Of a stretch of DNA of 64,000 nucleotides, positions 47,427-61,600 are shown one piece after another. This stretch comes from Gammaproteobacteria bacterium (GTDB taxonomy: Bacteria; Pseudomonadota; Gammaproteobacteria; SZUA-140): the NCBI GenBank assembly GCA_021648525.1, contig JAKISP010000008.1, positions 13,744 to 77,743 of the forward strand. Reading direction: 5' to 3'. The translations under genes were made by a program, and so were the position numbers. Position 1 is the first letter of the stretch; the number at the start of each line of letters is the position of its first letter. The notes beneath the pieces were generated by a model. That model had not been told where the DNA came from, ran no database searches, and saw only the letters and a program-made list of their open reading frames with translations.

Positions 47427-48614
47427 ATGAATAATTTAACTAAAGCAGTCGTTGGCATTTGCATCTTTCACCCTGTCGTGGCATTTTCTGCATCCGCACA
47501 AAAAGATGTAAGCCTAGAATCATATTTAAAAGACTACCACCCAGAAACCTACAGCGCAGCTAAAAGCAGTAATACTGATCTTAATTCACTTGAATTTTCT
47601 GCTTCAAATATCAATAATGATGATGCTGCTATGGTGGGTGCTAAATCAGCTTTAGCACTGTCACCGATACTACCACGCCCCTCACCAGGGTCGGCACGTA
47701 AGTACTGTGAGAAGGGTGGGACAGTGGGCGGTATATTTCTTGAAAATAACTTTGTGGCCACCTGTGTTAGTGAAGATGGTACTTTTGGCAATGGCTTTGC
47801 ACCGCTGGGAATGACATTTAACCCGGCTGGAACAGGCACGGTTAATGCACCAGATTATTTGCGGCCTGGCAGTCCCCATGAATATTTTTCAGTTACTTTC
47901 AATAAGCAATTATTTACCAATAACAATCGAAATGGACCCACGATGACGGGGTCTGATAATATTCCGACAAAAATTCGACGACTGGATCGATACCCTGCAC
48001 TTCAGGAAGGCGGGGTAATGGTTAGCTCAAGTATTACGGGTGAAAATCATGCTCAACTGAATATTAAACAAAAATATACTCTGGATCCAAATTCCAGAGA
48101 AATTATTGTCAGAGTAGAAATGCAAAATACAGGGTATGGCATGCTTCAAGGTATATCGTATGCCCGTGGAATAGATCCGGACCAGGACATACCCACCACC
48201 TATCATACGGTTAACCGGAAAGGTCATAGCTATTTTTTTCCAGGCAGCCCTGTTCATGTAAAACCGGCTAACATGGTTTGGGCTTCGGGAAAGTATAGCA
48301 AGCTCTCAATTGCACTTTATTCGGTTGACCCGGTCGGCCATGATACTTGTGTTAGTCGTACCTGGACAACAGACCCTATTGATATCCTGTCGCAAAATTG
48401 TGGTGATCCACAGCCTGTTTTTGATATCCCTGCCGGATTATATGGTTTTGATTATTCTGATTCGACAATTAATATTGCATTTAAGGTAGGAAAGCTGGCT
48501 CCAAAAGAGAAAAAAGTATTTTCGTTTAAATATCTTTTTGATAAGGAAAGAAAATACGTTATCCCTTATCCAAAACCTGTATTACCAATCCCCATCGATT
48601 CAGTGGACAAATAA
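47427..48614 (+). CDS. Hypothetical secreted protein in an AT-rich segment
   Basis: 395 aa with a signal peptide (VVGICIFHPVVAFSASAQ). AT-rich codon usage unlike its neighbours. No recognisable domain. Confidence 0.5.
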   Translation: MNNLTKAVVGICIFHPVVAFSASAQKDVSLESYLKDYHPETYSAAKSSNTDLNSLEFSASNINNDDAAMVGAKSALALSPILPRPSPGSARKYCEKGGTVGGIFLENNFVATCVSEDGTFGNGFAPLGMTFNPAGTGTVNAPDYLRPGSPHEYFSVTFNKQLFTNNNRNGPTMTGSDNIPTKIRRLDRYPALQEGGVMVSSSITGENHAQLNIKQKYTLDPNSREIIVRVEMQNTGYGMLQGISYARGIDPDQDIPTTYHTVNRKGHSYFFPGSPVHVKPANMVWASGKYSKLSIALYSVDPVGHDTCVSRTWTTDPIDILSQNCGDPQPVFDIPAGLYGFDYSDSTINIAFKVGKLAPKEKKVFSFKYLFDKERKYVIPYPKPVLPIPIDSVDK

Positions 48615-48694: not shown

Positions 48695-50587
48695 CTAGCG
48701 ACCACGTAAAAACAGTTTATCCAGTTCAACCATACTCATTTGAGTCCAGGTGGGTCGCCCATGGTTACACTGCCCACTGCGCTCGGTACGTTCCATGTCA
48801 CGCAGTAGTGCGTTCATCTCCGGCAAGGTCAGGATACGGTTTGCACGCACAGAACCGTGACAGGCCATTGTCGCCAACACCTCATTGAGTCGTTCCTGTA
48901 CCCGCACACTTGCACCGTAGGTGTTGATATCCGACAGCACATCACGCACCAGCGTCTCAATATCGGCATCACTCAACAGCGTCGGCACCTCACGCACCAC
49001 GATTGTTTCGGGCGCAATGCGCTGAATATCAAACCCCAGTGAGGCAAAGACTTCGCTAAACTCCTCGGCTAATGCTGCCTCTTTTTGATTCACCGCAATC
49101 GACAACGGCACCAACAACGGCTGAGATTTGATGCCACCATCACTGAAGGTCTGTTTCATCCATTCATATGTGATCCGCTCATGTGCGGCGTGCATATCCA
49201 CCAGCACCAGTCCCGCTTCATTCTGAGCCAGAATATAGACCCCATGCAGCTGCGCGATGGCAAAGCCGAGTGGCGGCACTTCCGAGGCATCTTGATCAGA
49301 GACATAACCATCAACCAGCGGCTGCGCCACCGTGCTCTCTGCAAGCACCTTATAGACATCGTTCAACGGCTCATTCGTCCTTAACGAGATGTTTGACTGT
49401 CGCGTGTAGGCGGCAGCGCCAGCACGACCAACTGGCTGAGGGGTCGTTAACGGCATCACCGCTGCACCCTGAGAAGGCAGAGGATTAGCCCCCATCGTTG
49501 GCATTGATGGTGCCGTCGCGCCTTCATTTTCAGCATCACCCGGCCGCACATCCGCCAGTGAACGGTGGATTGCACTAAAAATAAAGTCGTGAGCCAGACG
49601 CCCTTCACGAAAACGTACTTCATGTTTAGCTGGATGGACATTCACATCCACCTGTTCAGGGGACATCTCAAGGTTCAGCACAAAAGCAGGGTGACGCCCG
49701 TGATAAAGCACATCACGGTAGGCCTGGCGAATGGCATGGCTCACCAGTTTGTCGCGAATCACACGGCCATTAACAAAGAAATACTGCATATCTGCCTGAC
49801 TGCGTGAAAATGCCGGTAATGCCACCCAGCCCCATAGGCGCAGACCGGCAGCTTCATACTCGATCGCCAGTGCATTGTCTCTAAATGGCTTGCCACAGAT
49901 CGCCTCGACCCGCTCAATGTATTGATCTGTGCTGGTCGCTGGGCGCAGTGACAACACAACTCTTTGATTGTGCTTCAGTTGAAAACCCACCTCAAAATGA
50001 CTCAATGCAATCCGCTTGACCACCTCTTCCAGATGCCCAAACTCAGTCTTCTCTTTACGCAGAAATTTACGCCGTGCAGGGGTATTAAAAAAGAGGTCTC
50101 GAATTTCGACTGTCGTGCCCAGCGGGTGCGCACACGGTGCGGCATCTTCCTCTGGCGCATACCCCTCACTGCTCACCCGCCAACCGCTCTCATCCCCCTG
50201 TTGCCGCGATATCAGGCTCATCCTTGCAATAGAGGCGATACTGGGCAACGCCTCGCCACGAAAACCCAGTGTGACGATACCATCCAGATCACCCGCATTA
50301 ATAATTTTACTGGTTGCATGGCGGTTTAGCGCTAAAAGAAGATCCTCACGGTGAATCCCGACGCCGTTGTCTCTCACCCGAATCAGGCGCGCACCACCCT
50401 GTTCAACGTCGATCTCTATCTGAGTCGCACCCGCATCCAGACTGTTTTCCAGCAACTCCTTTACCACCGAAGCCGGTCTTTCTACCACCTCACCCGCGGC
50501 AATTTGATTCGCCAATTGAGCGGTAAGATGATGGATACGTCTGGCAGGCGTATGTTGTATCTCAGAGACGGAATTTGAATTAGACAT
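48695..50587 (-). CDS. mutL: DNA mismatch repair protein MutL
   Basis: GHKL ATPase motifs (ELLENSLDAGAT, DNGVGI), the transducer domain, and C-terminal dimerisation motifs (QLHGVYIL). 630 aa. Confidence 0.9.
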   Translation of the reverse strand: MSNSNSVSEIQHTPARRIHHLTAQLANQIAAGEVVERPASVVKELLENSLDAGATQIEIDVEQGGARLIRVRDNGVGIHREDLLLALNRHATSKIINAGDLDGIVTLGFRGEALPSIASIARMSLISRQQGDESGWRVSSEGYAPEEDAAPCAHPLGTTVEIRDLFFNTPARRKFLRKEKTEFGHLEEVVKRIALSHFEVGFQLKHNQRVVLSLRPATSTDQYIERVEAICGKPFRDNALAIEYEAAGLRLWGWVALPAFSRSQADMQYFFVNGRVIRDKLVSHAIRQAYRDVLYHGRHPAFVLNLEMSPEQVDVNVHPAKHEVRFREGRLAHDFIFSAIHRSLADVRPGDAENEGATAPSMPTMGANPLPSQGAAVMPLTTPQPVGRAGAAAYTRQSNISLRTNEPLNDVYKVLAESTVAQPLVDGYVSDQDASEVPPLGFAIAQLHGVYILAQNEAGLVLVDMHAAHERITYEWMKQTFSDGGIKSQPLLVPLSIAVNQKEAALAEEFSEVFASLGFDIQRIAPETIVVREVPTLLSDADIETLVRDVLSDINTYGASVRVQERLNEVLATMACHGSVRANRILTLPEMNALLRDMERTERSGQCNHGRPTWTQMSMVELDKLFLRGR

Positions 50588-50832
50588 CGATATTTTTTCA
50601 CCACATTTTCAATGCTGCCATTATAAACAAATCACCCAGAAAATATCTTTTTCTCTCGCTCTGGCCTGGTCAAAGGGTTCATTGCACCTGGGATGCATCA
50701 AAAAGCTAGCAACTCTTTAATTTTTATTAAGCATGATTTAGAGCCTGGAACAGGTCATTGTCCATCAGGCCAAGATGATAGATAAATTAAAATGCGCTGT
50801 CGCTTAACGATAAACGGATAATATTCGATTTA

Positions 50833-51339
50833 TTATCGGTAACTTATGTGGACGCCCTTCACTCCTGCTAGTGCACTAACACCACCTGCCACAGTCAGAA
50901 TGATCAGTCCTGGACCAAGGAATATAGTAGCAAGACCCGCCCCAAAGATTCCAATTGCTAACGCCCCATACTCCTCATACGCCACTTTCTCTGCATTCTC
51001 TCCCGCAGCCGCGGCATTTTTCACTTTCTGCCCGGCGAATGTCGCATCAATCACAATCGCACCCACCGCACTCACGCTGGCGATCTTCAGAAAACGTTTC
51101 AGGCGCAGGACCTCACTGAGGCGGGTGAGATCAATGCTGTGTTTACGACTGCGCAGCGCTCGCATACCGCGCCTGGTGCTTTTCAGGACGACGTTGCTAC
51201 GAGCCATGCTGCTGACTTCACTTTTGTAGACTTTGCTCAGTTTTTCGTGGGCCGGTTGCATTTTATCAATTTTGATTTTTCTTTGTTCTCGCGCAGGGAT
51301 CAGAAATTGATTCCTTGAGTCAGTCAGGTTGATATTCAT
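50833..51339 (-). CDS. Paralog 3 (168 aa) of the glycine-zipper membrane-domain family: an orphan C-terminal module
   Basis: Shares RKIKIDKxQPAHEKLSxVYKSEV...KRFLKIAxVSAVGAIVIDATFAGQKVKNAAAAGENAEKVAYEEYGAL with the 334-aa protein. It ends in the hydrophobic GxxxG-rich segment IGIFGAGLATIFLGPGLIILTVAGGVSALAGV. Its start overlaps the upstream ORF stop by ATGA. Confidence 0.6.
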   Translation of the reverse strand: MNINLTDSRNQFLIPAREQRKIKIDKMQPAHEKLSKVYKSEVSSMARSNVVLKSTRRGMRALRSRKHSIDLTRLSEVLRLKRFLKIASVSAVGAIVIDATFAGQKVKNAAAAGENAEKVAYEEYGALAIGIFGAGLATIFLGPGLIILTVAGGVSALAGVKGVHISYR

Positions 51340-51740
51340 AACTTGACACCGAGTACTTTGGTGAGAAAAAATAAAGCAATCAGACTTCCCACCGTTAAAA
51401 AGCCAATAAACAGATATAAATAACTTAAAATAATATCGAGTAGCGGGGCATTGCCACGAAAATTATAACCATTAGTGACATCGTGTATGACATGATGGCG
51501 TTTGCTGTGGATAAGATTTTTAAACACAATAAGCCCAGAATAGTAACCGGTTCGAACTACCGTTCCCATGAGTAATGGCAATGGTATGATGCGATCATAT
51601 TCAGGGAACATTGCATCATATTTTCGTGTTAGCCTAAAATACAGAAAGAGAAGCAAAATCATACCGACCAAACAACCAAAACCAAAACCAAGCGCAAGTA
51701 TCGACGCAAGCCATTCTTTAGTTACGGGCGACATTCCCAT
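51336..51740 (-). CDS. Small two-TM membrane protein (134 aa), paralog of 52194..52592; candidate immunity/partner protein
   Basis: TM1 LASILALGFGFGCLVGMILLLFLYF and TM2 LYLFIGFLTVGSLIALFFLTKVLG. About 50% identical to the 132-aa paralog (shared YFRLTRKYDxMFP, YxFRGNAxLxDIIL). Confidence 0.6.
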   Translation of the reverse strand: MGMSPVTKEWLASILALGFGFGCLVGMILLLFLYFRLTRKYDAMFPEYDRIIPLPLLMGTVVRTGYYSGLIVFKNLIHSKRHHVIHDVTNGYNFRGNAPLLDIILSYLYLFIGFLTVGSLIALFFLTKVLGVKL

Positions 51741-51772
51741 GCTTAACTCCCACTGTTACCTTTACAATATGC

Positions 51773-52132
51773 TCACTGTACTTCTGACAGGAGTTGTTTT
51801 TTCCGTTCAGCGGGCAGCGCTAGCTCGTAGGCTGAGATCTGTTCGTAGAGTGACTTGCCAAATTCACGTCCACCTTCGGCACCCAATAGCGCACTAACAC
51901 CACCTACGACAGTAAGAAGGATCAGTCCTAGGCCAATAAAAGTAATAGCAGCAAAGGTCACAAAAGTGGCTGCTCCGATACCCACAATCAACGCTCCATA
52001 CTCCTCATATGCCACCTTCTCCGCATTCTCCGCATTCTCCGCATTCTCCGCATTCTCGCCCGCAGCACGGGCATTTTTCACTTTCTGCCCGGCGAATGTC
52101 GCATCAATCACAATCGCTCCCACCGCACTCAC
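51773..52132 (-). CDS. Paralog 2 (119 aa): N-terminally truncated orphan copy of the glycine-zipper module carrying an (ENA)n repeat expansion. It may be an untranslated fragment.
   Basis: Homology to the other copies begins at LKIARVSAVGAIVIDATFAGQKVKNA. The upstream frame is open but non-homologous. The C-terminus is GIGAATFVTFAAITFIGLGLILLTVVGGVSALLGAEGGREFGKSLYEQISAYE. Confidence 0.45.
   Translation of the reverse strand: MSAVGAIVIDATFAGQKVKNARAAGENAENAENAENAEKVAYEEYGALIVGIGAATFVTFAAITFIGLGLILLTVVGGVSALLGAEGGREFGKSLYEQISAYELALPAERKKQLLSEVQ
52016..52060. repeat. In-frame 9-bp tandem repeat (ttctccgca x4 plus one degenerate unit) encoding ENAENAENAENAE
   Basis: Seen directly in the sequence. 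The other two paralogs carry a single unit (GENAEK). Confidence 0.85.
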
Positions 52133-52193
52133 TCTGGCGATTTTCAGAAAATATTGGGGACGCTGGGCATCGTTGCATCGGGCAGATTGGCAC

Positions 52194-52592
52194 TCATAAG
52201 TCGATGCCTAATATTTTCGTGAGAATAAAAAATGTAACTGCACTGACCAACATAACTGAGCCGAAAAAAAGCGTCGAATAGCATAAAATAATATCGAACA
52301 GCGATGCATTGCCACGAAAATCATATCCTCCCGTTATATGACGAATGCGCTCATTACGCTGACTGAGGTTTTTACAAATAATGCACCACATATAGCGTCC
52401 GGCACGGTTAATCTCCCCCTGTATCCCGATGCCATCAGTAAGATTAGCATGACCGGGAAACATCGGATCGTATTTCCGGGTCAGTCGAAAATACATAACA
52501 GGGAGTAGAATCATTCCCATCATCCCACCAATACCACCTCCCAAAACAAGCAGCCCCCCCAGCAGCTCTTTCATTTCTAATGACCATGCCAT
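52194..52592 (-). CDS. Small two-TM membrane protein (132 aa); candidate immunity/partner protein
   Basis: TM1 LLGGLLVLGGGIGGMMGMILLPVMYF and TM2 LCYSTLFFGSVMLVSAVTFFILTKILG. Paralog of 51336..51740. Confidence 0.6.
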   Translation of the reverse strand: MAWSLEMKELLGGLLVLGGGIGGMMGMILLPVMYFRLTRKYDPMFPGHANLTDGIGIQGEINRAGRYMWCIICKNLSQRNERIRHITGGYDFRGNASLFDIILCYSTLFFGSVMLVSAVTFFILTKILGIDL

Positions 52593-52621
52593 ATCTAATC
52601 ACTTACTCACTGTTTTTAAGC

Positions 52622-53626
52622 TTACAGCACGCTCAAGGTTGCCTCGGACAATAATTGTTTCTTCCGTTTGGATGGCATGGCCGCCTCGTAGGTCGAGATT
52701 TGATCATATAACTGTTTACCAATCTCTCGGCCAAGTTCTGCGCCTACCAATGCACCAATGCCCCCGGCGACAGCAAGAATGATTAATCCAGGACCAAGAA
52801 ATGCAGTGGCAAAGCCCGCACCCAATATTCCAAGCACTAACGCCCCATACTCCTCATACGCCACTTTCTCCGCATTCTCACCCGCAGCCGCGGCATTTTT
52901 CACTTTCTGCCCGGCGAATGTCGCATCAATCACAATCGCTCCCACCGCACTCACTCTGGCGATTTTCAGGAAACGTTTCAGACGCTGAACATCATCGGTA
53001 TTGGTAAGGTCAATGCTCTGTTTGCGGCTGCGCAGCGCTCGCATGCCGCGTTTTGTGCTTTTCAGGGCGGCGCTGTTATGAGCCATGCTCCTGACTTCGC
53101 TTTTGTAGACGTTGCTGAGTTTTTCGTGGGCCGGTTGCACTTTGTCAATTTTGATTTTGTTGCGCTGTTTCTTTGGTGCATTTTTCCATTCCACCAGGCT
53201 GTCGTTGTACACTTGCAGCGCCTGAATATACCCCTTGCCGCGCGACCTGGAGGCTCCCAGTAGCCCGCCGGCAAAGGCTTTGAGGGTATCGTCATTTTGC
53301 GGCAATGTATCGACAAGGGTGCTGAGGGCGAGGATTTCATCGCCGTTGTATTGTTGTAGCAGTTTATTCAGGACATCCGCTTCCTGTGGGGTAAACCGTG
53401 GCCCGATGTTGACCTGCGGTACCTTGCGTTTGAGTTGTTGCTCCAGGTTATCGGGAATCATCAGGCATTCATTCGGAAACAGGGGGCGATTGGGGTAGTG
53501 TCCGTTGTATTTTGCCAGTATCTTGCAGATGGAAGCCTGCTCTGCAGCGGGTGCTTCATGGCAATGTCGGGCGACGAAATCAGGTAATGTTTCGGATTGA
53601 TTATCGGTGACATACAGTGTCGGCAT
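52622..53626 (-). CDS. Full-length member (334 aa) of the glycine-zipper membrane-domain family: unknown N-terminal ~200-aa domain, a conserved linker, and a C-terminal Gly-zipper TM segment
   Basis: The C-terminus VLGILGAGFATAFLGPGLIILAVAGGIGALVGAELGREIGKQLYDQISTYE is preceded by the linker shared with the two downstream orphan copies. No signal peptide. Confidence 0.6.
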   Translation of the reverse strand: MPTLYVTDNQSETLPDFVARHCHEAPAAEQASICKILAKYNGHYPNRPLFPNECLMIPDNLEQQLKRKVPQVNIGPRFTPQEADVLNKLLQQYNGDEILALSTLVDTLPQNDDTLKAFAGGLLGASRSRGKGYIQALQVYNDSLVEWKNAPKKQRNKIKIDKVQPAHEKLSNVYKSEVRSMAHNSAALKSTKRGMRALRSRKQSIDLTNTDDVQRLKRFLKIARVSAVGAIVIDATFAGQKVKNAAAAGENAEKVAYEEYGALVLGILGAGFATAFLGPGLIILAVAGGIGALVGAELGREIGKQLYDQISTYEAAMPSKRKKQLLSEATLSVL

Positions 53627-53811
53627 GACGCTTTTCCTTACGCTGAAATGAAACGGCCTTAAACAAGGCTGTAAAATGACTAAAATAGTAGCACGAAACC
53701 GTTAACCTGGAAAACGCAGTTGCGCGTAAAAATTCACAAGCAACTGATATTAATAGTAATTTTTAAAAACAGGCAGTCACTTTGCTAGTAATGAGTGATT
53801 TTCCAGATACG

Positions 53812-53978
53812 CTAGGAGCCTGTCGGACTTAGGTGATCGTCGCGAGAGAAAGCCATTTTGAGACCATTTTTTCGATCATTTGAGGCGAATATTGAGCATA
53901 TTTAACGAAATTGATCGGAAAAATGGACCGAAATGGCTTTTTCGCAGTAGATTCATCCTAAGTCCGACAGGCTCCTAG
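53812..53978. mobile_element. 167-bp near-perfect palindromic element with 22-bp terminal inverted repeats (MITE/REP-like)
   Basis: Left end ctaggagcctgtcggacttagg (53812..53833). Right end cctaagtccgacaggctcctag (53957..53978). Internal arms are also self-complementary (gccattttgagacc / ggaccgaaatggc, tcgatca / tgatcga). It lies in the amiB to cassette intergenic region. Confidence 0.6.
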
Positions 53979-53997
53979 TACATGATCAAGGCTAATG

Positions 53998-55371
53998 CTA
54001 ACCACCGCCAAAAGCTGGGATTTTTAACACCTGCCCAATCCGCACTCTGTCACCAGGCAGTTTATTTTCTGAACGAATACTCGCAATACTGACATGATAA
54101 CGTTGCGCAATCTCTGAAAGCGTATCACCACTGGCGATGGTATGCTGACGCGCTTTAATCGCATAAAGTGTTCCTGGTGGCGCGTTCTTAATAAAGTACT
54201 CACGCACACCATTCAACAGCGCCTTAGCCAACACACGCTGATGCCGCTTATTTCTCAATTTTTTTTCTTCAGTGGGATTAGAGATAAAAGCGGCTTCCAC
54301 CAATATAGAGGGTATATCCGGCGACTTCAGCACCGCAAATGCGGCTTGCTGAACCTCTTTTTTATGCAGTTTACCCAGCGGCTTCAGCTCCCGCAACATC
54401 TCTCTACCCGCTTCATAACTAGCTTGCTTGGTGGCAGTCTGCGAAAGATCAAGCAGCACTCGCGCTAACATGTTGTCTTTGTCATCCAGACTAACGCCGC
54501 CAATCAGGTCGGATGCATTTTCTTTTTCTGCTAACCACCGGGCGGCTTCACTAGAGGCACCATTTTCAGATAAAATATAGACCGATGAGCCATAAACACG
54601 TTTATCCTGAAAGGCATCCGCATGGATTGAGATAAACATATCAGCTCGATTATCACGCGCCTTTTGAGTACGCTGACGTAAACTCAAAAAATAATCACCA
54701 TCACGAATCAACAATGGCCGCATCCCTTTCTCTTTCTCGATTAACGCCGCCAGTTTTTTCGCGATCGCAAAAACAACGTCTTTTTCATGTGTACCACGTG
54801 GCCCCAACGCGCCAGGGTCTTCACCACCGTGACCCGCATCAATCGCAATAACGAGATCTCTTAATTCAGGTTCAACACGTAGAGAACGTGCTTTTGTACT
54901 GTTTTTTGACACGACTGGCTTGCCAGCAGCAGACTTTGATTCATTTTTTTGACGCCCGCCATGCAACAGATCAACCACCAGGCGGTGCCCATACTTCTTA
55001 TAAGGCTTGAGCAGAAAACTTTTGAATTTAGTTTTATCGTGCAGGTCGAGCACCACCCGTAAATCTTTATTAGGTCGAACCGCGCTGCGAATATTTTTCA
55101 GAATAATGTCTTTGCCAGCGGGCTTCACCATCTTGCCGCTCAGACGCGTATTTTTGAAATCGATCACCAGACGAGGCGGATTGAAGAGTTTAAACACCTT
55201 ATATTCAGCGCTTGCACTACTCACATCGAACACTACTCGGGTGTTATCGGGTGCTTGCCAGGTGCGCACGCCATCGACCTGAGTACTCGCTGCAGAGCAG
55301 ACCCAGGGTAGTGCTAACAAGAATATGAGACTCAGTTTTTTTATCACGCTTGAGACCTGTCTTTTTTTCAC
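53998..55371 (-). CDS. amiB: N-acetylmuramoyl-L-alanine amidase (AmiB/AmiC-type) with an AMIN domain and a C-terminal LysM
   Basis: Amidase_3 motifs (IAIDAGHGGEDPGA, ISIHADAF), N-terminal signal peptide and AMIN domain, C-terminal LysM (HTIASGDTLSEIAQRYHVS). 457 aa. Confidence 0.85.
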   Translation of the reverse strand: MKKRQVSSVIKKLSLIFLLALPWVCSAASTQVDGVRTWQAPDNTRVVFDVSSASAEYKVFKLFNPPRLVIDFKNTRLSGKMVKPAGKDIILKNIRSAVRPNKDLRVVLDLHDKTKFKSFLLKPYKKYGHRLVVDLLHGGRQKNESKSAAGKPVVSKNSTKARSLRVEPELRDLVIAIDAGHGGEDPGALGPRGTHEKDVVFAIAKKLAALIEKEKGMRPLLIRDGDYFLSLRQRTQKARDNRADMFISIHADAFQDKRVYGSSVYILSENGASSEAARWLAEKENASDLIGGVSLDDKDNMLARVLLDLSQTATKQASYEAGREMLRELKPLGKLHKKEVQQAAFAVLKSPDIPSILVEAAFISNPTEEKKLRNKRHQRVLAKALLNGVREYFIKNAPPGTLYAIKARQHTIASGDTLSEIAQRYHVSIASIRSENKLPGDRVRIGQVLKIPAFGGG

Positions 55372-55478: not shown

Positions 55479-55949
55479 TCACTGCATCTGCTGGATGATT
55501 TTACGCCCTTTTGCACTAGCGGCACACACTGACAGCTCACGCGCACTGCCACAATAAGACAATGTTAATTCGATATCTGCCTTTCCAATCGCACCCGCGC
55601 CACGCTCAGGCCACTCCACCAGACAGAGCATGTCGTCAGAAAAGTAATCACGAATCCCCATATACTCAAGCTCCTCCGGATCGCCAAGACGATACAGATC
55701 AAAGTGATGCAGCAGACCATCGACTAGTGGATATGACTCCACCAGCGTGTAAGTCGGACTTTTAACCGCCCCCGTATAACCACGCGCATGCAAGAACCCT
55801 CGCACCCATGTCGTCTTTCCCGCTCCCAATGGGCCATGCAAAAAAATCACGCCGCCGCCTGTAATAACAGAAGCAAAAGTTGCGCCAAGTGCCTCCATCT
55901 GTTCAGCAGTGGCAATATGCCAGCTTTTTTTTATCTCAGACACCCTCAA
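55479..55949 (-). CDS. tsaE: tRNA threonylcarbamoyladenosine biosynthesis protein TsaE
   Basis: P-loop GPLGAGKTT plus the SPTYTLVESY and HFDLYRL motifs. 156 aa. Overlaps the nnr stop. Confidence 0.85.
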   Translation of the reverse strand: MRVSEIKKSWHIATAEQMEALGATFASVITGGGVIFLHGPLGAGKTTWVRGFLHARGYTGAVKSPTYTLVESYPLVDGLLHHFDLYRLGDPEELEYMGIRDYFSDDMLCLVEWPERGAGAIGKADIELTLSYCGSARELSVCAASAKGRKIIQQMQ

Positions 55950-58609: not shown

Positions 58610-61600
58610 TCAAGCCACATTCTGCCATGCAGCTGCAATCACAGGTTGAAGTCCTGTCTGTAAATCAGGTGAAAGCGTCAGTTCACCCAGTGCAGGTGGG
58701 TTAAATGCCGCCATCGCACTGACTAATTGATCGACCTGGGTATCAAGCAGGTAAGCACCATCAGCCACTTCAAAACGATCTACTTGATAAGCATCATCAC
58801 CATACCAATTTGAAACAACCAGTTGATCGGCGGTGCCAATCACACTCACATTCAGGTTATCGCCATTTCTGCTGAACCATAATTGCTCTGTCGATATATC
58901 CGCACCAAAAAGTGCCATATCTTCCGTTGCGCCATAAACAGCCGGTTGTGCATCCTGTGCGTTATAATCGTTGACTACATCACTGCCATCGCCCCTTCCA
59001 AAGATATAAACATCGCTGCCCGCTCCACCACTCAGGGTGTCGTTGCCAGACCCACCAACCAGTGTGTCGTTGCCGGTTGAGCCAGTCAGACTATCGTTAC
59101 CAGCCATGCCGTAGATCGCAGCGATATTCACCAGCGTCGTACCACTAAAGTCGAGCGTGTTGCTGTAGTTATTGTTCTGAATGATGTTGCTGCCAGCGCC
59201 GCCATCGATTACTTCGACGGTGTTGCTACCTGAGAAGGTGCTCAGTCCAATAGTGTCATCGCCTGCGCTACCTTGCAGGGTATCAATGCCATCACCACCG
59301 TTAACCCGGTCAAAACCATCGCCTTCAGTATAGAGAAACAGGTCATCACCTGCTTCACCATAAAGCTGGTCATCATCGCGGCCGCCGTAGATCTGGTCGT
59401 TGCCGCCACCGCCAAAAATAGCGTCATTACCGTCACCGCCGAAGAGGATGTCGTCACCCACTTCAGTCACGGCAACATCCTGGGTTTGATTGAGAGCCAG
59501 CACGCTCTCAGTATATGTCCAATAGGCATTGGCAGGAAAAAAACCAACGGCTTCATTCGCACCGTCCCATGTCGCAATCACCCCGCTTTCGGTATCACCA
59601 AAAAGTGTGTCATTGCCAGTCCCACCCACCAGGGTGTCGATCCCGGCACCGCCGTATAACCAGTCATTACCGGCACTGCCATACAGATAGTCCTGACCAT
59701 CTTCGCCAAAAAGCAGGTCGTTCCCGTCCATTCCCAGCAGGATGTCTTCTGCACCACCACCATCGAGGTAGTCGTGACCGAGGCCACCCACCAGCCAGTC
59801 AACCCGCGATGAGCCCACCAGGGTGTCATTGCCACCTTCACCATAGAGGTAGGCACCTTCTGCACCGGCAACCGCTGAATCTGTTTGAGAGGAAGCGGAG
59901 AGGGTGTCATTGCCTTCACCACCGTAGAGCTGAATGCCCGGGTTGTTGGCAATATCCAGCACATTAACAAAATCGTTTTGGTCACCGACATAAACAGCAT
60001 CAATATTGCTGGCGAGGGTGATCTGGTTCGGGGTGAGCGGGTCGGCTCCCGCCAGGTCTGCGTTAAAGTTTGAGGCTGTCATGCCATCGATCTGTAAAGC
60101 GTCTTCGTTACCAATAAAGGTGGTGATCGTGGTGGTTGCTACCGGTTCGGGGGTCTCGATCAGGTTAATCCCGAGGTCGCCGTTGTTAAAGTTTTCAACA
60201 GAGACAACACCATCCACGCCGATAATCTGCAGGAAGTTGCCGTTGAGGCGGTAGGTTAATGAGCCGTCGTCGTTCTGGTATTCATTGGCGGTGGCGGTCT
60301 CAAGGCCACCGATCAATACGTTGCCGTCATAGATGATCTGGCCGAGGCCATCTGTATCGCGAATCAGGTCTGAACCGTCACCGCTGTTGAAGATGTAGGT
60401 ATCCATGCCGGTGCCACCTTCGAGTACATCGGCAACATTGTCACCAGCACCGCCGATCAGAATGTCGTCACCCGCACCGCCATAGAGGCGGTCGGTACCG
60501 CCGCCGCCATTGAGAACGTCGTTGTCGTTACCGCCGTAGAGGTTGTCATCGTTGGCATCACCGCTGAGGATATCGTCACCGGTGCCACCCAGCAGGGTGT
60601 CATTGCCAGCGCCGCCTAGCAGGGTGTCTGTACCGGCGTTGCCTTCAATATAATCAGCACCTGCATTTCCCGAAATGATGTCGTTACCGGCACCGCCGTA
60701 GAGGTAATCGCCCTGATTGCCACCGTTGATTGTGTCTGGGTTTTCATCACCAAAGGTGTAGCGAACTGCACTTGGTAAAATTGTAGATCCGAAATCAAAG
60801 GTTCCTGCCTGTATATTTGAACCTTGATCGTCATAGTATTCAATCCTGCCATCTGTTGTTGGTACCAAATAATGGTCAATACTATTTCTGCTTATTAACT
60901 GGTTAAGTACGTAGGCCTTATCTAGCAAAAATTGCTCGGTAAAATTATCAGCGCCCCATTCACTGGATAAATAGAGACCTGCATTCCCGGTAATCGCGAA
61001 AGGGTTGAGGTTAACCAGTGCATAGCGGTAGGCATACCCTGCCGCTGAGTTATCCATCGCAGCATTGGCCAGGCTATTAACATCTACGATGCTGACAGCA
61101 CCGACGGAATTCGTAAACAGGCCGCTTGCCTCTATGGCTTGTATCTGTGTGTAGAGGGCATCACGGTCGTCGATTGCCACGTTTCCAGTCACACCAAAAA
61201 TACCACTGAGCATATCGATGGTGGTTTCCAGGCTATTGGCGTTAATATAGGTGCTGTTTTCTATAAAGCTGGTAATGGTGTTGATGCCGTTGGGGTCGGT
61301 GTTGAGATTGGAGTCCAATGTGGCGAAGAGGTTGTAGACGGCGAGGGAGTCGGTCATTGCGACTATATCATGAGAATCGAGCGGCCCTTGATTATTACTC
61401 TCTGAAAAAATAATACCGCTAATTCCAGGCACATCACCTATCAAATGAACAAGATCACTTTCTACATTCGTATTGACACCACTGGTATTCCAATCAGTAC
61501 CGATGCTACCAGTAAGTGGCACTGGAACGCTGTTAAATAAATCAAAGAACCCTGAGCTAGTTGGATCTGTTCCAAACACATCGAATCCGGGTGAATTGTA

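Follow-up and report, generated by a model that had tools for sequence, protein, structure and literature searches.

Why should 3.4 kb of DNA separate amiB from mutL, two genes that are normally contiguous in gammaproteobacteria? The question is raised by a 64-kb stretch (64,000 nt; hereafter the window) of a contig from a metagenome-assembled genome (MAG) of a Gammaproteobacteria bacterium. On its minus strand, open reading frame (ORF) calls give the order nnr, tsaE, amiB, a gap of 3410 nt, and mutL, and Pfam supports all four housekeeping genes. The gap contains five ORFs on the same strand, called A to E here, and one palindromic element of 167 nt. None of the ORFs has a match in Pfam, NCBIfam, or PADLOC (the last for E, D, B, and A at an E-value of <=1). 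As developed below, the intervening DNA is an accessory insertion, and its ORFs, which derive from a single two-gene module, may encode a membrane toxin and its immunity protein, a reading towards which we lean.

We compared the locus with 80 gammaproteobacterial loci fetched via MutL, with 50-60% identity to the MutL of the window. In 66 of the 80, mutL is immediately preceded by a co-oriented amiB, and the gap is <=400 nt in 63 of these 66 (median, 88 nt). A gap of 3.4 kb is therefore exceptional. The initial annotation of this DNA had described a normally contiguous pair split by five same-strand ORFs with no housekeeping function, and both statements are borne out. No homologue of E or D was found at any of the 80 loci.

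No close relative was available among GTDB species representatives, in which the best MutL identity was 60%. A protein-cluster search gave MutL proteins 88-91% identical to that of the window; a Thiotrichales MAG (GCA_002401265.1; locus L217), whose MutL is 89% identical, has the same gene order as the window over ~17 kb to either side and lacks the cassette. The gene order of this relative is RTX protein, queG, nnr, tsaE, amiB, a response regulator (163 aa) on the opposite strand, and mutL, followed by copper-oxidase fragments, a cation-efflux gene, an AhpC/TSA gene, an M90 peptidase, and a DUF748 gene. Its amiB and regulator genes are convergent, with stop codons 33 nt apart. According to blastn, homology with the window runs from 59386 down to 53998, ending exactly at the amiB stop codon; it returns at 50806-50728, which corresponds to the 3' end of the regulator gene, and a second time at 50663, leaving 75 nt before mutL. 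Translated on the plus strand, 50728-50806 reads SMI, a stop codon, SLEQVIVHQAKMIDKLKCAVA, and a second stop codon, and the regulator of the relative ends in SMIQSQEQIISHQAREIDRLKYSVA followed by its stop codon. The genes and remnants that flank the array are as follows.

55946-57427/57565, minus strand: nnr (Pfam).
55479-55949, minus strand: tsaE (Pfam).
53998-55371, minus strand: amiB, with AMIN, Amidase_3, and LysM domains; upstream flank (Pfam).
50728-50806, plus strand: remnant of the response regulator gene, comprising the final 26 codons and interrupted by a stop (blastn; translation against the L217 regulator).
50588-50663, minus strand: region proximal to mutL and conserved with the relative, with a TATAAT box at 50620-50625 (blastn).
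48695-50587, minus strand: mutL, intact, 630 aa; downstream flank (Pfam, homologues).

From this comparison, the ancestor of the lineage evidently had amiB and mutL already parted by an oppositely oriented regulator gene and no miaA-hfq after mutL. The window has gained ~3.19 kb (roughly 50809-53997) inside the 33-nt convergent spacer between amiB and the regulator, and its regulator gene has lost ~640 bp. Since the regulator is intact in the relative and a remnant in the window, the junction has been remodelled at least twice. Thus, an alignment proposed as a check on the insertion gave a mixed answer: the cassette is indeed absent from the relative, but amiB and mutL are not adjacent there either.

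The same ancestral arrangement bears on the downstream side of the locus. The order mutL-miaA-hfq-hflX is present in many of the 80 loci, and no homologue of miaA or hflX occurs anywhere within the 64-kb window. The absence of miaA-hfq after mutL, which had been taken as a sign of the insertion, is real, but because the relative shares it, it characterises the lineage and does not belong to the insertion event. A further suggestion, that the insertion deprived mutL of its native promoters, is unsupported. Since the relative already has the regulator gene between amiB and mutL, the uncoupling of mutL from the amiB promoters predates the cassette; moreover, the 75 nt upstream of mutL are kept, with the TATAAT box (50620-50625) present in both genomes. 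The proximal promoter region thus looks intact, and the insert probably leaves mutL expression undisturbed. Promoter and terminator scans of 50300-54300 gave counts no higher than in shuffled sequence and were not used. For mutL the result is reassuring: because the lineage had already parted mutL from amiB and the mutL leader is intact, a mutator effect should not be assumed. The event is thus more modest in size, and in its consequences for this gene, than first proposed.

Two lines of evidence agree with the proposal that the gap holds an integrated accessory island: it is absent from a colinear relative, and E-D modules occur elsewhere at unrelated sites. Other hallmarks of an island are missing. 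ORF calls and Pfam reveal no integrase or recombinase in the cassette, and neither flanking direct repeats nor target-site duplications were found; the only similarity between the edges (13/14 nt; E-value, 0.15) is taken as chance. Nor does the composition look foreign. The GC content of the gap is 46.6%, versus 49.0% for the window, and its tetranucleotide distance reaches the 96th percentile, a value exceeded by the core nnr region. GC3 is host-like in E (0.57) and lower only in B and D. The compositional deviation that had been anticipated therefore exists in a mild form and lends little support to a foreign origin. Overall, the intervening DNA is an accessory insertion, and the added ~3.19 kb comprises two independent parts, a palindromic repeat and a five-gene array.

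The five ORFs of the array, the leader that precedes them, and a repeated block within them are listed here.

53627-53704, minus strand: conserved leader upstream of E, ~78 nt, common to both E copies of locus L086 (alignment).
52622-53626, minus strand: E, full-length, 334 aa (ORF call, homologues, model).
52194-52592, minus strand: D, 132 aa, putative immunity partner of E (ORF call, alignment).
51773-52182 by homology (ORF, 51773-52132), minus strand: C, displaced E-like C-terminal fragment, ORF of 119 aa (alignment).
51336-51740, minus strand: B, 134 aa, paralogue of D and putative immunity partner of C (alignment).
50833-51339, minus strand: A, displaced E-like fragment, 168 aa (alignment).
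52843-53004 (in E), 52021-52182 (in C), and 50964-51125 (in A), minus strand: homology block in three copies (repeat family D1, sliding identity).

E consists of a LysM-like beta-alpha-alpha-beta head (residues 1-60), a helical middle, a C-terminal hydrophobic hairpin, and a basic tail. It has one hydrophobic stretch of 41 residues (260-300), with a Gly-Pro turn inside and a glycine zipper, AGGIGALVGAELG, at 287-299 (GxxxGxxxG). A first AlphaFold model, from 21 close homologues, was too poor to use (pLDDT 53); a second, from 36 family sequences, reached a mean of 70.9 and shows the head at pLDDT 85-93, with long helices after it. On the Pfam LysM profile, whose cut-off is 20.9 bits, the distant member P0040 reaches 20.2. 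D starts 29 nt after E and has two predicted membrane helices flanking a basic loop of ~60 aa; helix 1 carries a zipper of its own, GGGIGGMMG.

The remaining ORFs repeat parts of this pair. C corresponds to E from residue ~208 through the C-terminus; its mechanical ORF begins at GTG 52132. It has two added stretches, a 9-nt repeat expanded in frame and, in the hairpin, an insertion of four residues. The expansion lies at 52017-52057, where a 9-nt tandem repeat (GAGAATGCG, minus strand) enlarges an ENAEK motif to ENAENAENAENAEK in fragment C only. B is 48% identical to D. A covers E residues ~150-295 and ends inside the second hairpin helix, with no immunity gene behind it; the start codon of A (ATG) and the stop codon of B overlap. 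All five ORFs derive from one two-gene module, present as the full pair E-D, then as C-B, and finally as the cut-off A. The core of the block shared by E, C, and A (~120 nt; E residues ~218-260) is 97-100% identical among the three at the DNA level, and the hairpin beyond it is 60-77% identical. This block, just upstream of the divergent hairpin, is likely the substrate for recombination.

A word-indexed search with E returned 30 proteins, all of them from MAGs that carry the label Gammaproteobacteria or Thiotrichaceae; two of the 30 are further E paralogues (P0010 and P0013) from the MAG of the window itself. A full profile search extended the family to 114 cluster representatives at 50% identity; every full-length one measures 310-360 aa and has the same layout. 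No Pfam or NCBIfam family was found in E or in ten distant members. At all fetched loci, the E-like gene is followed, after 20-90 nt, by a protein of 115-134 aa that can be aligned with D and has two predicted membrane helices, and this pairing is kept even where E is only 21-27% identical. The surroundings, mostly housekeeping genes, differ from locus to locus: DUF188/PrcB_C, queF/smc, a Y1 transposase, CHASE2 cyclase/FecR, EVE/HipA, and coaBC/radC. Because the chromosomal context is different at every locus, the module moves. E-D is thus a small family without prior annotation, whose chromosomal location changes from one relative to the next.

Two variants within the family deserve mention. 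One is a distant E-D module between coaBC and radC (L211, 8001-15335), accompanied by a second copy of the 5' part of radC and by an N6 methyltransferase of the type IIG-like kind; it looks like a separate small island within another conserved gene cluster. The other is a proline/glycine-rich N-terminus (MVGSRIPGPLGIGP...PLPGPLGIG) that replaces the LysM-like head in members at L088 (10001-10927) and L089 (6333-7259), so that the N-terminus of the family is exchangeable too.

Arrays similar to that of the window are found in other genomes. Locus L086, from a Thiotrichaceae MAG, encodes a full E with D, a fragment with D, another fragment with D, a second full E with D, and a terminal stub (334-134-154-132-103-125-338-134 aa plus the stub). 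Since the ~78 nt upstream of E in the window match both E copies of this locus, we place the amiB-side edge of the cassette near 53704. E fragments also follow D directly in L082, L083, L084, L087, and L090, starting at residues ~150-165 or ~201-211. The E hairpin and D of the window both show 92% identity to their counterparts in the second module of L086, which is an orphan, and the remainder of the window E is ~79% identical to the full copies of that locus. Hairpins and partners also vary together: their distances are correlated over 13 pairs (Mantel r = 0.38, p = 4.5e-4), and hairpins with the four-residue insertion are always paired with a B-type partner.

These arrays also bear on whether the gap could be an assembly or binning artefact, produced by a chimeric join where E-like sequence is repeated. 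In favour of this, the contig comes from a MAG, the three block copies are 97-100% identical over ~120 nt, and further E paralogues lie in the same MAG. Yet both flanks are colinear with one contig of the relative for 17 kb on either side, the regulator remnant and the conserved mutL leader stand in the expected order, and similar arrays occur in independent assemblies (L086, L087, and L090). A mis-join within the array could alter the number of copies, not the presence of the insert. We regard an artefact as very improbable.

The second part of the insert is the palindrome.

53812-53978, no strand assigned: palindromic element of 167 nt, resembling a miniature inverted-repeat transposable element (MITE; inverted-repeat, folding, metagenome matches).

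It begins 19 nt past the amiB stop codon, occurs once in the window, and has perfect 22-nt terminal inverted repeats (CTAGGAGCCTGTCGGACTTAGG) at 53812-53833 and 53957-53978. Its folding energy is -84.7 kcal/mol (z = -11.6 against shuffles), and as RNA it would form a hairpin of that strength between amiB and the cassette. A 19-nt core has at least 120 exact matches in metagenome contigs, and among the matches listed, a second inverted end lies within 260 nt in 78 of 120 contigs. The elements measured are mostly 161-163 nt long, with GC contents from 41% to 65%. Their ends are fixed across genomes and their interiors diverge, with compensatory double changes at 34 of 61 predicted stem pairs. 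TA is present on both sides in 45 of 75 copies, although the 22-nt repeat itself may simply include CTAG, which is indistinguishable from duplication; most copies sit in C-TA...TA-G. CTAG/TA is the target pattern of IS630. No autonomous transposase partner with the same 22-nt ends was found, and no transposase is evident between the ends in any of four long-range pairs (the pair in L098 surrounds a pcnB-like gene). Rfam gave no match in 50400-54200 at an E-value of <=1, the palindrome included, and a literature search for the repeat sequence found no description.

Members of this palindrome family (~162 nt) are also present at L096, L109, L112, L123, L136, and ~70 other metagenome loci, as well as at L224 (4001-4167), and one copy, without annotation, is carried on a Pseudomonas megaplasmid. 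In L127, an unrelated metagenome contig that ends inside the element, a copy (66-84) lies immediately upstream of a mutL gene (193-1976) with 66-68% nucleotide identity to that of the window. We also considered an association between the palindrome and E-D, and rejected it because no other E-D locus has a copy.

The palindrome had been described as bounding the cassette on the amiB side. It is real and located there, but it belongs to an independent repeat family and is not a boundary feature; it is apparently a non-autonomous, MITE-kind repeat of a widespread family, independent of the cassette. Like IS630/Tc1-mariner-type MITEs, it is short, lacks coding capacity, ends in perfect inverted repeats located mostly in C-TA...TA-G, and has many copies scattered over intergenic sites. 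Unlike them, it has a hairpin interior kept by compensatory changes, a constraint not needed in a simple deletion derivative, and no matching autonomous element was found. The family is a separate lead: its 22-nt ends are identical across very different base compositions while its interior is compensated.

What might the array do? The E-D loci show features by which polymorphic toxin loci are recognised: a full gene with a small partner, 5'-truncated fragments downstream, and a conserved block before a variable C-terminus. We consider it moderately probable that the array represents a membrane-toxin/immunity pair with displaced older modules C-B and A, E being permeabilising and D variant specific. 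E would be anchored in the inner membrane via its C-terminal glycine-zipper helical hairpin, and we infer that it permeabilises (depolarises) that membrane. D would neutralise its own E variant via helix-helix contacts within the membrane. C-B and A would be older C-terminal-plus-immunity modules, presumably pushed downstream as new modules recombined in through the ~120-nt block, and the retained immunity genes would protect the cell against relatives still making those variants. Any export of E to such relatives would be part of the same conjecture.

Several observations weigh against a competition toxin. E has no signal peptide or N-terminal hydrophobic segment; PAAR, Rhs, VENN, LXG, and MIX markers are absent in every member tested (E and ten distant ones); and no type VI or type VII secretion system (T6SS or T7SS) gene, or other secretion gene, was found among the called or Pfam-annotated neighbours in the window region and at related loci. 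Full-length family members are uniform in size and architecture, whereas classical polymorphic toxins shuffle unrelated toxin domains; here all 114 representatives align over one C-terminal architecture, with no unrelated folds swapped. The co-variation of hairpin and partner could come from physical linkage alone. The structure model of E is only moderate (pLDDT 70.9), and fold searches with it gave generic helical bundles only, with no colicin among the top matches. Similarities to pore formers hint at the toxin reading but are not significant: the C-terminus of the NCBIfam T6SS effector BTH_I2691 matches fragment A only (E-value, 0.065) and not E, and a profile search against PDB sequences reached residues 134-191 of the colicin Ib pore domain at an E-value of 0.47. 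Moreover, positive charge follows the hairpin of E and fills the loop of D, which suggests an orientation of both proteins towards the cytoplasm of the producer; this would be just as compatible with a toxin-antitoxin or abortive-infection pair that works inside the cell.

Such a pair would act only in the producing cell, as a membrane toxin-antitoxin (addiction) or abortive-infection system, and E would never be delivered to other bacteria. It would collapse the membrane potential upon loss of D or sensing of a phage, and the fragments would be by-products of recombination between paralogues. The lack of an export signal or secretion marker in E, the charges that put the soluble portions of both proteins on the cytoplasmic side, and the uniform architecture among the 114 representatives are all in keeping with this alternative, as are neighbours of the defence or toxin-antitoxin kind at some loci, namely, HipA/HTH and EVE (L088), a type IIG-like methyltransferase (L211), and SymE (L087). 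Yet PADLOC gives no match, and most loci lie in plain housekeeping contexts. Furthermore, intact immunity-type genes are repeatedly kept behind 5'-truncated E fragments, and variation is focused in the hairpin and the partner helices, both hallmarks of competition loci and not of defence or toxin-antitoxin systems. We hold action confined to the producing cell to be rather unlikely, if a serious competitor to the toxin-immunity reading.

Alternatively, E-D could be a non-toxic, lineage-specific membrane pair, such as an envelope or peptidoglycan scaffold, that is tandem-duplicated and decaying here. The LysM-like N-terminus could be read in this way (P0040 falls just short of the LysM cut-off, and the head is modelled at pLDDT 85-93), no significant homology to any toxin family was found, and the composition is near that of the host. 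However, a LysM-like head without a signal peptide would be cytoplasmic, where peptidoglycan is absent. The placement is patchy and multi-copy, different in every genome, and the exchange of modules between genomes would be unexpected for a structural housekeeping pair; so would a near-identical recombination block beside a fast-diverging hairpin. A structural role of this kind strikes us as improbable.

If E-D is a toxin-immunity pair, it adds a family without annotation (at least 114 clusters at 50% identity, none with a Pfam, NCBIfam, or PADLOC match) to the membrane-depolarising toxins. It would also place orphan-module diversification, without a recognisable secretion marker, in poorly studied, sulfur-oxidising, vent-associated Thiotrichales-like bacteria, and would lead one to ask by what route these proteins arrive at a target. 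More tentatively, and with doubts outweighing confidence, E-D may define an undescribed family of competition toxins: small, stand-alone glycine-zipper pore formers with a LysM-like head, a two-helix immunity protein, displacement of hairpin-plus-immunity modules, and delivery without known markers of T6SS, T7SS, contact-dependent growth inhibition (CDI), or colicins. One possibility is that the head could load the toxin on a contractile injection particle or dock on the peptidoglycan of the target. PHROGs gave no significant match; below threshold, the head weakly resembles LysM modules of phage baseplate hubs (phrog_46 against P0048; E-value, 0.0055).

Outside the cassette, two features of the window are worth recording. 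Beyond mutL, an ORF of 395 aa (47427-48614, plus strand) is strongly AT-rich, with a GC3 of 0.32 versus 0.50-0.57 in its neighbours; it has a signal-peptide-like N-terminus and no Pfam or NCBIfam family. The relative carries copper-oxidase gene fragments in its place, which marks a second variable spot beside mutL. At the other end, two RTX calcium-binding repeat proteins adjoin queG (58610-62170 and 62896-63987, minus strand); since RTX-repeat proteins occupy the corresponding place in the relative, these genes are conserved backbone and not insert.

How does E-D compare with known toxin systems? Tse4 and Ssp6 are glycine-zipper membrane-depolarising effectors of the T6SS. TelE (10.1101/2022.09.07.506920) and EsxX (PMC12744356) are likewise glycine-zipper depolarising toxins, each with a membrane immunity protein. 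E shares with TelE and EsxX/TspA (T7SS), Tse4, and Ssp6 a GxxxGxxxG motif in a C-terminal hydrophobic region and a gene for a small membrane protein, the presumed immunity protein, immediately downstream. It differs from them in having no detectable sequence homology, LXG domain, or T6SS association, and in its LysM-like N-terminal head, which those effectors lack. In pore-forming colicins, an integral-membrane immunity protein probably recognises the toxin hairpin within the bilayer. E, as predicted, resembles colicins Ia, Ib, and E1 as a helical protein with a buried hydrophobic hairpin that inserts into the inner membrane; unlike colicins, E-D has no receptor-binding or translocation domain and no lysis gene, and its locus is chromosomal and multi-copy.

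The arrangement of the array is that of CdiA-CT/CdiI, Rhs, and the orphan arrays of neisserial MafB. These systems differ from E-D in protein design and surroundings: E has only 334 aa, without VENN, PAAR, Rhs, DUF1020, or any other delivery domain; its C-termini all belong to one fold family instead of unrelated toxin domains; and no two-partner, T6SS, or other secretion genes lie near E-D loci. Yet the genetic organisation agrees. In both, a full-length gene is followed by a small immunity gene (roles that for E and D would hold under the toxin-immunity reading), and 5'-truncated toxin fragments stand behind with immunity genes of their own, as in C-B, although A has none. In both, a conserved stretch of homology lies just before the variable C-terminus, and the same C-terminus/immunity module can be the main one in one genome and an orphan in another.

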